Numbered from the stretch's first letter, positions 42,844 through 44,519 are shown. The stretch is DNA of 64,000 nt from Escherichia coli (GCF_002854065.1 NZ_CP024147.1); one strand, 5' to 3'. A program made the numbers and translations. The notes: generated by a model from the sequence alone, not told the origin.

Positions 42844-43170
42844 ATGAAAAAACTGATTCTCATCGCCATGATGGCATCGGGGCTGGTGGCTTGTGCGCAA
42901 TCAACCGCGCCACAGGAAGACAGCCGTCTGAAAGAGGCATACAGCGCCTGTATCAACACCGCACAAGGTTCGCCAGAAAAAATTGAAGCCTGCCAGAGCG
43001 TGTTAAACGTGCTGAAGAAAGAGAAACAACATCAGCAGTTTGCCGACCAGGAAAGTGTACGCGTACTGGATTATCAGCAGTGTCTGCGTGCAACGCAAAC
43101 CGGAAATGATCAGGCGGTGAAAGCCGATTGTGATAAGGTCTGGCAGGAAATTCGCAGTAATAACAAATAA
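42844..43170 (+). CDS. chiQ: Small lipoprotein ChiQ
   Basis: 108-aa ORF with lipobox LVAC after a signal peptide; co-oriented 49 bp after chiP. Confidence 0.85.
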   Translation: MKKLILIAMMASGLVACAQSTAPQEDSRLKEAYSACINTAQGSPEKIEACQSVLNVLKKEKQHQQFADQESVRVLDYQQCLRATQTGNDQAVKADCDKVWQEIRSNNK

Positions 43171-43200
43171 GTGAGAGCTGTAACTCTCGCTTTTCTTATT
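43171..43200 (+). terminator. Intrinsic terminator after chiQ
   Basis: Hairpin gagag-ctgtaa-ctctc followed by T-rich tract. Confidence 0.5.
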
Positions 43201-43253: not shown

Positions 43254-43700
43254 TTATTTGCCTTCGTGCGCGTGCTCATCTTCGCGGCAATCGCCTTCGG
43301 CACAGTGACCGTAAAGATAGAGACTGTGGTTAGTCAGGCGAATGCCATGTTTTGCGGCAATTTCACGCTGACGCGCTTCGATGGAATCATCACTAAATTC
43401 GATAACCTTGCCGCAGTCGAGGCAGATCAGGTGATCGTGGTGATGTTGCTGTGTCAGTTCAAATACGGATTTACCGCCTTCAAAATTGTGGCGGGTGACG
43501 ATACCAGCGTCGTCAAACTGGTTCAGTACGCGATATACCGTAGCCAGACCAATTTCTTCACCCATATCGATCAGACGTTTGTATAAATCTTCCGCACTGA
43601 CGTGATGGTTGTCCGGCTCCTGAAGGACTTCCAGGATTTTTAAACGAGGAAGCGTTACTTTCAGGCCAGCTTTCTTTAGGGCGGTATTGTTATCAGTCAT
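43254..43700 (-). CDS. fur: Ferric uptake regulator
   Basis: 148-aa ORF with Fur metal-binding motifs (HHHDHLICLDCGKVIEF ... HSLYLYGHC). Confidence 0.95.
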   Translation of the reverse strand: MTDNNTALKKAGLKVTLPRLKILEVLQEPDNHHVSAEDLYKRLIDMGEEIGLATVYRVLNQFDDAGIVTRHNFEGGKSVFELTQQHHHDHLICLDCGKVIEFSDDSIEARQREIAAKHGIRLTNHSLYLYGHCAEGDCREDEHAHEGK

Positions 43701-43779
43701 GCGGAATCTGTCCTGTTACTAAGCGGTTCACTTCATTAGAAGAAGTGACAGAATTTGCTCTTGAGATAATGCGTATCAT
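43693..43779 (-). CDS. uof: uof leader peptide (28 codons) translationally coupled to fur
   Basis: Minus-strand ORF MIRIISRANSVTSSNEVNRLVTGQIPHD whose stop overlaps the fur start; matches the described upstream-of-fur ORF. Confidence 0.55.
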   Translation of the reverse strand: MIRIISRANSVTSSNEVNRLVTGQIPHD

Positions 43780-43783
43780 TATA
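43765..43783. promoter_or_regulatory. Fur-box-like sequence at the uof/fur leader
   Basis: Minus-strand TATAATGATACGCATTATC matches about 16 of 19 positions of GATAATGATAATCATTATC; overlaps the uof start codon and a TATAAT hexamer. Confidence 0.45.
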
Positions 43784-43988
43784 GAATTGCCACGCCTAAA
43801 TGAAAACCACAAGTCCCTGGCAAATATTGTTAATAAAAACGTGGCACAGCTTACATTTACAACGGCAAGGCCACTTGAACACCGGGACATTGTACAGGTA
43901 CAACAGCAAAAGTTACAAATTTGTAGCAATTATTTTGATTGGCATTATCTATTAATACGGCGTAGACATGAGTCTACGCCGCATCACA

Positions 43989-44519
43989 TCAGGCATTGAG
44001 AATTTCGTCGAGATGCAACTCTTCAGAAATCTGTTTAACCCATTTTTCTACACGTTCAGCGGTCAGTTCCGGCTGACGGTCTTCGTCGATAGCCAGACCG
44101 ACAAAGTGGTCGTCATCTGCCAGACCTTTTGATGCTTCGAAATGATAGCCCGCAGTTGGCCAGTGACCAACGATGGTTGCACCGCGCGGTTCAATGATGT
44201 CGCGGATGGTGCCCAATGCGTCGCAGAAATATTCGGCGTAATCTTCCTGGTCACCACAACCAAACAGCGCAACCAGTTTGCCATTGAAATCAATCTCTTC
44301 GAGAGTCGGGAAGAAGTCATCCCAGTCACACTGCGCTTCGCCGTAATACCAGGTTGGGATGCCCAGCAGCAGAATGTCATAAGCTTCCAGATCTTCTTTG
44401 CTGCTTTTTGCAATGTCATGGACATCGGCAACGTCTTTACCAAGCTGTTTTTGAATCATTTTTGCGATATTTTCGGTATTACCGGTGTCGCTGCCGAAAA
44501 AGATGCCAGTGATAGCCAT
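43989..44519 (-). CDS. fldA: Flavodoxin 1
   Basis: Start set at [16 protein letters not shown] (FMN-binding loop; 176 aa); the ORF track extends 39 codons upstream. Confidence 0.92.

Follow-up and report, generated by a model that had tools for sequence, protein, structure and literature searches.

Enterobacteria have Fur as their master iron regulator, and its loop with RyhB and uof is a textbook case of indirect control by a small RNA (sRNA) through an upstream open reading frame (ORF). The stretch of Escherichia coli DNA analysed here (GCF_002854065.1, NZ_CP024147.1; 64,000 nucleotides, hereafter the window, with positions counted from its first letter) carries fur preceded by a short ORF that runs into the fur start codon. 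We asked whether this ORF is uof, how it relates to the transcription signals that lie over its start, which fur mRNAs carry it, and which parts of the leader are conserved. We hold it to be very probable that the locus is the E. coli fldA-uof-fur control region and that the published control by Fur, uof, RyhB and MiaB operates as in K-12. The sequence features, the identity of the annotated locus, the mapping of published transcription start sites (TSSs) and the conservation pattern were obtained in this analysis; for the binding of Fur, the translation of uof and its coupling to fur, the pairing of RyhB and the role of MiaB we rely on secondary accounts in the literature.

A 28-codon ORF overlapping the fur start codon corresponds to uof

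The first-pass annotation had proposed, within positions 43693-43790, a 28-codon ORF that ends over the fur ATG in the arrangement described for uof. Such an ORF is present:

43693..43779, minus strand: uof, leader ORF of 28 codons followed by TGA (translation, RefSeq, NCBIfam)
43254..43700, minus strand: fur coding sequence, 148 amino acids (ORF list, RefSeq, NCBIfam NF006999 at 309 bits)
43693..43700, minus strand: 8-nt overlap of the uof stop and the fur start, ATGACTGA (sequence)

The uof ATG lies at 43779..43777 and its TGA at 43695..43693, and the fur ATG at 43700..43698. Translation of the ORF, which begins ATG ATA CGC ATT ATC TCA and ends CAT GAC TGA, gives the peptide MIRIISRANSVTSSNEVNRLVTGQIPHD. 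The range first proposed does contain the ORF; however, it carries 11 extra upstream nucleotides and is out of frame if translated as given. The gene order at the locus is chiP-chiQ-fur-uof-fldA-ybfE. A terminator-like bidirectional hairpin (43169..43192) is found between the convergent chiQ and fur genes.

The assignment to uof was confirmed by annotation. The 1.45 kb around the site has a match of at least 95% identity in 5,424 of 5,426 complete E. coli genomes, and beneath it RefSeq annotates fldA, fur and 'uof: fur leader peptide', the last of these in all E. coli genomes listed. The MG1655 counterpart, b4637, is annotated as 'RyhB-regulated fur leader peptide', and the 215 nt of leader compared show no difference from MG1655. 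Against the NCBIfam equivalog NF011344 'fur leader peptide', the peptide reaches 85.2 bits (cut-off 71) over its full length, residues 1-28; Pfam has no model for it. When set beside uof-fur of E. coli K-12, the locus shows no difference: leader sequence, 28 codons, 8-nt fur overlap and UCA at codon 6 are all shared. The K-12 system was reportedly described by Vecerek et al. in 2007, in EMBO J 26:965. The uof leader ORF, with the fur operator and promoter over its start codon, is an element already described and annotated: it was correctly recognised and nothing about it is new. What is of residual value at the locus is that the dominant, Fur-repressed start lies inside uof and that, by the comparative evidence, hairpin and operator seem to be kept across a wider range of species than the ORF.

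The Met-Thr-Asp codons that open fur (ATGACTGAY at codons 1-3, kept in 77 of 80 species) place TGA at both +1 and +5, in the two non-fur frames, so that any open non-fur frame automatically overlaps the fur ATG. Moreover, 44 ORFs of at least 20 amino acids are found in 2.5 kb around the site, and a 28-codon ORF is thus not unusual. Since short ORFs are common and the stop overlap is forced, the significance of uof rests on annotation and published experiments and not on sequence statistics. Ribosome binding signals are weak as well: Shine-Dalgarno (SD) complementarity amounts to -3.6 kcal/mol for uof and -4.0 kcal/mol for fur, versus -6.5 kcal/mol for fldA.

43711..43714, minus strand: SD core of fur, AGGA (-4.0 kcal/mol against the anti-SD, weak)

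This AGGA core sits in a block (-16..-1) that is invariant across Enterobacteriaceae. The forced overlap and the weak SD both speak for an alternative in which uof is an incidental frame that takes its ATG from TATAATG and its stop from Met-Thr-Asp, the promoter/operator and a hairpin being the functional parts and RyhB acting directly on the leader RNA. However, uof translation, its coupling to fur and the inhibition of uof initiation by RyhB have been published, as passages in several secondary papers relate, and we regard the alternative as unlikely; the comparative evidence that bears on it is given below. On the reading that we prefer, in which uof is translated, the ATGACTGA overlap is inferred from its sequence to be a termination-reinitiation coupling site. 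Ribosomes on uof would terminate at the UGA overlapping fur codons 2-3 (AUGACUGA), and this termination would lead to initiation at the weakly SD-led fur AUG, which is the translational coupling described in the passages of the literature that treat it.

The uof frame is open upstream (78 codons; 43780..43929, minus strand). A longer uof starting from the in-frame TTG at 43929 or ATG at 43890 was rejected, as it is without an SD (+0.9 kcal/mol at the ATG) and the ATG lies inside the TACAAT -10 of the upstream promoter; a longer product on fldA read-through RNA is formally possible.

A Fur box and a sigma-70 promoter cover the uof start

A Fur-box-like site and a -10-like TATAAT had also been noted around the uof start, and overlapping autoregulatory and promoter signals had been suggested. 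Both motifs are present, and the hexamer is followed by a mapped transcript start. TSSs were taken from the table of Kim et al. 2012 (PMC3415461, supplementary file 2), and the 51-mers were placed in the window.

43765..43783, minus strand: Fur box, 19-mer TATAATGATACGCATTATC (16/19 to the consensus GATAATGATAATCATTATC)
43778..43806, minus strand: Pfur, sigma-70 promoter TTTTCA-17-TATAAT (promoter scan, 10/12)
43770, minus strand: strongest TSS, an A (Kim et al. 2012, MG1655 v2 position 709,939, 46 reads)

The 19-mer TATAATGATACGCATTATC is the only match to GATAATGATAATCATTATC with three mismatches or fewer in the 64-kb window. Shuffled sequences gave an expectation of 0.01 such matches, with 1 of 100 shuffles containing any; the match is well beyond chance. 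Read as hexamers (TATAAT / GATACG / C / ATTATC) against an array of GATAAT, the site scores 5/6, 4/6 and 6/6, and the uof ATG falls within it. In Pfur, the -10 TATAAT (43783..43778) is perfect (6/6) and the -35 TTTTCA (43806..43801) is weak (4/6). The 17-bp spacer and the start 7 nt past the hexamer lie within the 16-18 bp and 5-9 nt adopted for sigma-70 promoters. The Fur box spans both the -10 and the +1 of Pfur.

This arrangement is that of the literature. PMC7867234 places the E. coli Fur box over the -10 of 'Pfura', a fur promoter, puts the fur transcription starts inside the uof ORF and has a separate start for uof further upstream; in a passage citing de Lorenzo 1988, the same paper labels the 19-mer as the Fur-binding site of the fur promoter. 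The operator described there (de Lorenzo et al. 1988, via PMC7867234) is likewise a 19-bp Fur-box-like site over the -10 and, as far as that passage goes, does not differ from the one in the window, where Fur binding is predicted. As the 19-bp operator covers the -10 and the start of Pfur, iron-loaded Fur would repress its own main promoter, as the literature has it.

Two other readings of these 19 nt have to be weighed. One takes the site as promoter only (-10, discriminator and +1), with an AT-rich likeness to a Fur box and no meaningful regulation by Fur. It can point to the incomplete match (16/19) with its poor central hexamer GATACG, to other genera, in which the match drops to 4-7 mismatches with TATAATGA.ACGCATT constant, and to Fur autoregulation of fur being called 'moderate' or 'slight' (PMC7867234). 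However, no other sequence in 64 kb matches at this stringency (0.01 expected), ACGCATTAT is conserved beyond the -10, which a -10 alone would not require, and the literature, in the passages of PMC7867234 concerned, treats the site as Fur-binding and reports autoregulation; we think a promoter-only site quite improbable. The other reading takes TATAAT to be inactive as a -10, all fur transcription coming from upstream and every fur mRNA carrying uof. The -35 is indeed weak (4/6), and RNA processing might in principle account for the 5' ends at 43770; yet the strongest mapped 5' end lies 7 nt past the hexamer, two papers (PMC7867234, PMC6191717) place fur promoters inside uof, and the hexamer is kept across the order even where the ATG is lost (TATAATTG or TATACTG). 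An inactive hexamer is therefore, in our estimate, highly improbable.

We thus keep TATAAT as both a working -10 and part of a Fur operator. Since this -10 contains the uof ATG, the Pfur transcript is without the uof start and the two signals are mutually exclusive on any one transcript. The suggestion of overlapping signals consequently holds for operator and promoter, but the uof start and the -10 are not compatible on one transcript.

Short and long transcripts differ in carrying uof

Kim et al. 2012 list four minus-strand starts here: 43770, 43707, 43882 and 43913.

43882, minus strand: TSS of the uof-fur mRNA (Kim et al. 2012, position 710,051, 8 reads, assigned to uof)
43913, minus strand: minor upstream TSS (Kim et al. 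2012, position 710,082, 5 reads)
43889..43918, minus strand: Puof, TTGTAA-18-TACAAT (promoter scan, 9/12)

The start at 43770 falls at nt +10 of uof, 9 nt downstream of the uof AUG, and leaves a 70-nt leader to fur. The start at 43882 lies 7 nt past TACAAT, with 103 nt separating it from the uof AUG and 182 nt from the fur AUG, and that at 43913 lies 134 nt ahead of the uof AUG. TTGTAA-18-TACAAT is the constitutive RpoD promoter of uof-fur (Shimada et al., PMC3946193), a ybfE-fldA-uof-fur operon with three promoters has been described (Conway et al., PMC4161252), and Sinha et al. (PMC6191717) tell apart two messages, a 'fur mRNA' made from 'Pfur located within the uof ORF' and a 'uof-fur mRNA' made from an upstream 'Puof'. 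Pfur, starting at 43770 inside uof, produces a fur mRNA with a 70-nt leader and no uof start codon, and long transcripts with the full 28-codon uof come from Puof (43882), from the minor start at 43913 and from fldA/ybfE read-through.

A transcript start downstream of the uof ATG had been named beforehand, together with a lack of Fur protection, as what would count against the proposal. The first of these two applies to Pfur, with its start at 43770; it does not apply to 43882, 43913 or the fldA/ybfE read-through, which carry the entire ORF, so that uof is not refuted. That the main TSS lies downstream of the AUG is nevertheless a further point for an incidental uof: the fur-proximal starts downstream of the uof AUG account for 74 of 87 reads in this one TSS data set. 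The whole of uof is present only on the longer transcripts, which are the rarer ones in the data set of Kim et al., and the uof route may govern only a fraction of fur mRNA under the conditions of that data set. Because Pfur starts inside uof, the mRNAs subject to transcriptional autoregulation are in part not those subject to translational control by uof/RyhB. This partial separation, together with a frame that seems from the comparison to be less conserved than its hairpin, is relevant to quantitative models of Fur homeostasis. When bound at its site, which corresponds to +99..+117 of the long transcript, Fur could by its position also form a roadblock.

Three further features were observed around these starts. 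The 5' end at 43707 (minus strand; Kim et al. 2012, 28 reads) lies 7 nt before the fur AUG and downstream of AGGA (43714..43711), and corresponds either to a near-leaderless fur mRNA or to a processing site. A 15-bp hairpin (43953..43986, minus strand; -25.4 kcal/mol, z = -8.4) is located 3 nt after the fldA stop and is without a U tract, its 3' arm abutting the region upstream of the start at 43913; it is probably a leaky terminator or a stabiliser that sets fldA read-through into uof-fur. Just upstream of the TTGTAA -35, at 43919..43957 (minus strand), ATAG-N7-CAAT-N7-ATTG is a putative site whose sequence resembles the spaced ATAG/CTAT elements of the OxyR site. OxyR is said to activate fur, a finding attributed to Zheng et al. 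in 1999, and the motif fits.

Candidate RyhB pairing sites lie on both sides of the short transcript start

In the passages of four secondary accounts that deal with the system (PMC7534054, PMC11550727, PMC11448259, PMC12683245), fur is translated in coupling with uof, RyhB prevents initiation at uof with the effect that Fur synthesis falls, and a UCA codon ties uof decoding to the Fe-S enzyme MiaB. On these passages, RyhB, itself Fur-repressed, would block uof initiation at low iron so that less Fur is made, and decoding of UCA codon 6 by MiaB-modified tRNA would be a second iron-dependent input. Codon 6 of uof is TCA (43764..43762), a Ser codon, so that an early UCA is present; the Ser is not kept at this position in other genera, being, for instance, Pro or Thr in Enterobacter and Kosakonia. 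The control of thrL and ivbL by GcvB (PMC7534054) is similar, in that the sRNA blocks initiation at a short upstream ORF and lowers the downstream gene indirectly. However, the link in uof-fur is coupling via the overlapping stop and start, not transcription attenuation.

Pairing between the leader and RyhB (sequence taken from MG1655) was examined by duplex prediction. Full-length RyhB against the leader gave only meaningless long-loop structures with RNAduplex, and windowed duplexes of the RyhB core with the leader were no better than shuffles (best -18.9 versus -19.0 +/- 2.8 kcal/mol). This agrees with the PETcofold authors (PMC3018821), for whom the published RyhB-uof-fur pairing model, which overlaps the RyhB terminator, was not predictable. 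Two local candidates can be named:

43783..43822, minus strand: candidate RyhB pairing region upstream of the uof AUG (duplex prediction, not better than shuffles)
43746..43760, minus strand: second candidate RyhB site, GAGCAAAUUCUGUCA, uof codons 7-12 (duplex prediction, putative)

Duplexes of the first have predicted energies of -11.9 kcal/mol with RyhB 37-67 and -17.5 kcal/mol with RyhB 68-87. It includes GGCAAU (43791..43786; -12..-7 of the uof AUG), which is complementary to RyhB 41-46 and occurs on long transcripts only, and the 43822..43783 stretch is also predicted to pair with the RyhB terminator arm. The second, GAGCAAAUUCUGUCA, reaches -12.1 kcal/mol with RyhB 37-48 and occurs on long and short transcripts alike. 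Both local candidates include the functionally important G44/C45 of RyhB. Sinha et al. (PMC6191717) found that RyhB lowers the short fur mRNA, which is without the uof start, and not the long uof-fur mRNA. This effect would be explained more easily by GAGCAAAUUCUGUCA. The response of the short mRNA, and the presence downstream of its TSS of a RyhB-complementary stretch that includes G44/C45, both favour the incidental frame, and are to be set against the published inhibition of uof initiation already cited.

A hairpin within uof shows covariation

An RNA stem-loop was found inside the uof coding sequence:

43728..43748, minus strand: RNA stem-loop UCACUUC-UUCUAAU-GAAGUGA, uof codons 11-17 (folding, covariation)

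It lies at -48..-28 from the fur AUG and, folded alone, has an energy of -8.5 kcal/mol (z = -4.25). Its loop is the variable block of the leader. In other genera a hairpin occurs at the same distance from the fur AUG with different stems, namely ACUUCCG/CGGAAGU, UUGCUCC/GGAGCGA, CGCUCA/UGAGCG and AGGCU/AGCCU. In a test anchored at this position, the mean longest stem was 5.92 bp, as compared to 4.21 +/- 0.14 in shuffles. Covariation was tested on 64 Enterobacteriaceae leaders with a covariance-model alignment and 500 shuffles. Paired cells made up 89.0%, against 81.2 +/- 0.9% in shuffles (0/500 as high) and 32-49% in slid controls; changes on both sides were seen in 6 of the 8 hairpin pairs, and compensatory cells numbered 33, against 10.0 +/- 2.5 in shuffles (0/500). 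These statistics are to be read with the caveats that a model-guided alignment favours its own structure and that the sequences are related. Owing to differing loop lengths, the hairpin escaped RNAalifold when plain MAFFT alignments were used, so that a covariance-model alignment was needed, and Rfam gave no family in 43500..44100 at E<=1. Folded globally, the 110-nt and 222-nt leaders were not stable beyond shuffles (z = +0.17 and -0.22). A minimum-free-energy helix, UCUGUC/GACAGA, that would mask the fur SD was dropped, as conservation does not support its 5' side.

Single-nucleotide deletions that break uof were found in Salmonella arizonae, C. sedlakii, Citrobacter Awk4 and Enterobacter Bisph1 (leaders L028, which is Salmonella enterica arizonae, L006, L015 and L018; locus positions ~1160-1165). 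All four lie in the hairpin loop, and they are apparently independent. The resulting leaders have a 16-codon ORF with its stop 30 nt ahead of fur: the hairpin is kept and the ORF is lost. Klebsiella oxytoca, Raoultella and Atlantibacter are also without a coupled uof.

A two-codon mini-ORF, ATG AAG TGA (43728..43736, minus strand), in the fur frame, straddles the loop and the 3' arm of the hairpin; it is present in Escherichia, Citrobacter and Salmonella and absent from Enterobacter.

The promoter and hairpin appear more widely conserved than the reading frame

The fur loci of 80 Enterobacterales species were compared, and 81 leaders were scored for the fate of the ORF. TATAAT is found 70-91 nt upstream of fur in nearly all 80 loci, and the -10 hexamer stays in place in species that have lost the embedded ATG: Dickeya, Pectobacterium and Trabulsiella read TATAATTG there, and some Erwinia TATACTG. 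Within Enterobacteriaceae, TATAATGA.ACGCATT is nearly invariant. A uof-type ORF (28-30 codons, ending at the +5 TGA) was retained in about 37 of the 81 leaders, including those of Escherichia, most Citrobacter, Enterobacter, Kosakonia, Kluyvera, Phytobacter and Leclercia. From the embedded ATG, the frame ends at the +1 TGA in 7 leaders, runs into the fur frame in 5 and meets an early stop in about 24, among them Salmonella enterica arizonae (16 codons), Citrobacter sedlakii, Klebsiella oxytoca, Raoultella, Atlantibacter and Pantoea. The frame is broken by 1-nt indels in Salmonella arizonae, Citrobacter sedlakii, Klebsiella oxytoca, Raoultella and others; some frame-keeping leaders carry 3-nt insertions that preserve it. 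In Yersinia enterocolitica (PMC7867234), where fldA precedes fur, the homologous -10/Fur box of the fur promoter, TATAATGAGACGCA..., is found ~84 nt ahead of the gene. A uof ORF is not recognised in that organism, which fits the patchy retention of the ORF among Enterobacterales.

Among the 23 distinct ungapped uof-type leaders, codon periodicity was absent (diversity by codon position 0.168/0.123/0.184) and variation was concentrated at -41..-35. Judged by these alignments, the uof peptide sequence is evidently not what is conserved, which is compatible with translation as such being what matters, or with the ORF having no function except in some lineages. The pattern suggests that wide conservation in the leader belongs to the hairpin and the operator and not to the reading frame.

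How far does this comparison favour an incidental uof? The missing codon periodicity, at least six apparently independent frame-breaking indels in close relatives (four of them 1-nt loop deletions that spare the hairpin) and the conservation of TATAAT far beyond the ORF are all on its side. However, about 37 of 81 leaders retain the frame, some of them through frame-preserving insertions, and the comparative evidence concerns the family and not E. coli itself. A translated uof is thus still the reading that we prefer for E. coli. A separate proposal, which we put forward tentatively and consider possible rather than probable, is that what is constrained is the promoter/operator and the covarying hairpin (43748..43728), not uof, with uof/RyhB control being lineage-restricted and confined to minority transcripts and the dominant transcript regulated otherwise. 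If this were true, uof-mediated RyhB control would be an add-on of Escherichia, most Citrobacter, Enterobacter and relatives, limited to the minority of fur transcripts that start upstream, such as the one reportedly induced by OxyR. The dominant, Fur-repressed transcript would then be translated and regulated by RyhB in another way, possibly via the hairpin and GAGCAA...UGUC downstream of 43770.

Two groups of leaders depart from these outcomes. In L057, L058, L060 and L063 (Enterobacter sp. R1(2018), Buttiauxella, Dryocola; locus positions ~1132-1203), the ATG of TATAATG is in the fur frame with no stop between, so that read-through RNA could encode Fur with an N-terminal extension of 22-23 residues. 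In L046 (Enterobacter asburiae; locus positions ~1122-1270), fur codon 2 is ACA, not ACT, and the +5 TGA is gone; the uof frame extends to 49 codons, running into fur out of frame.
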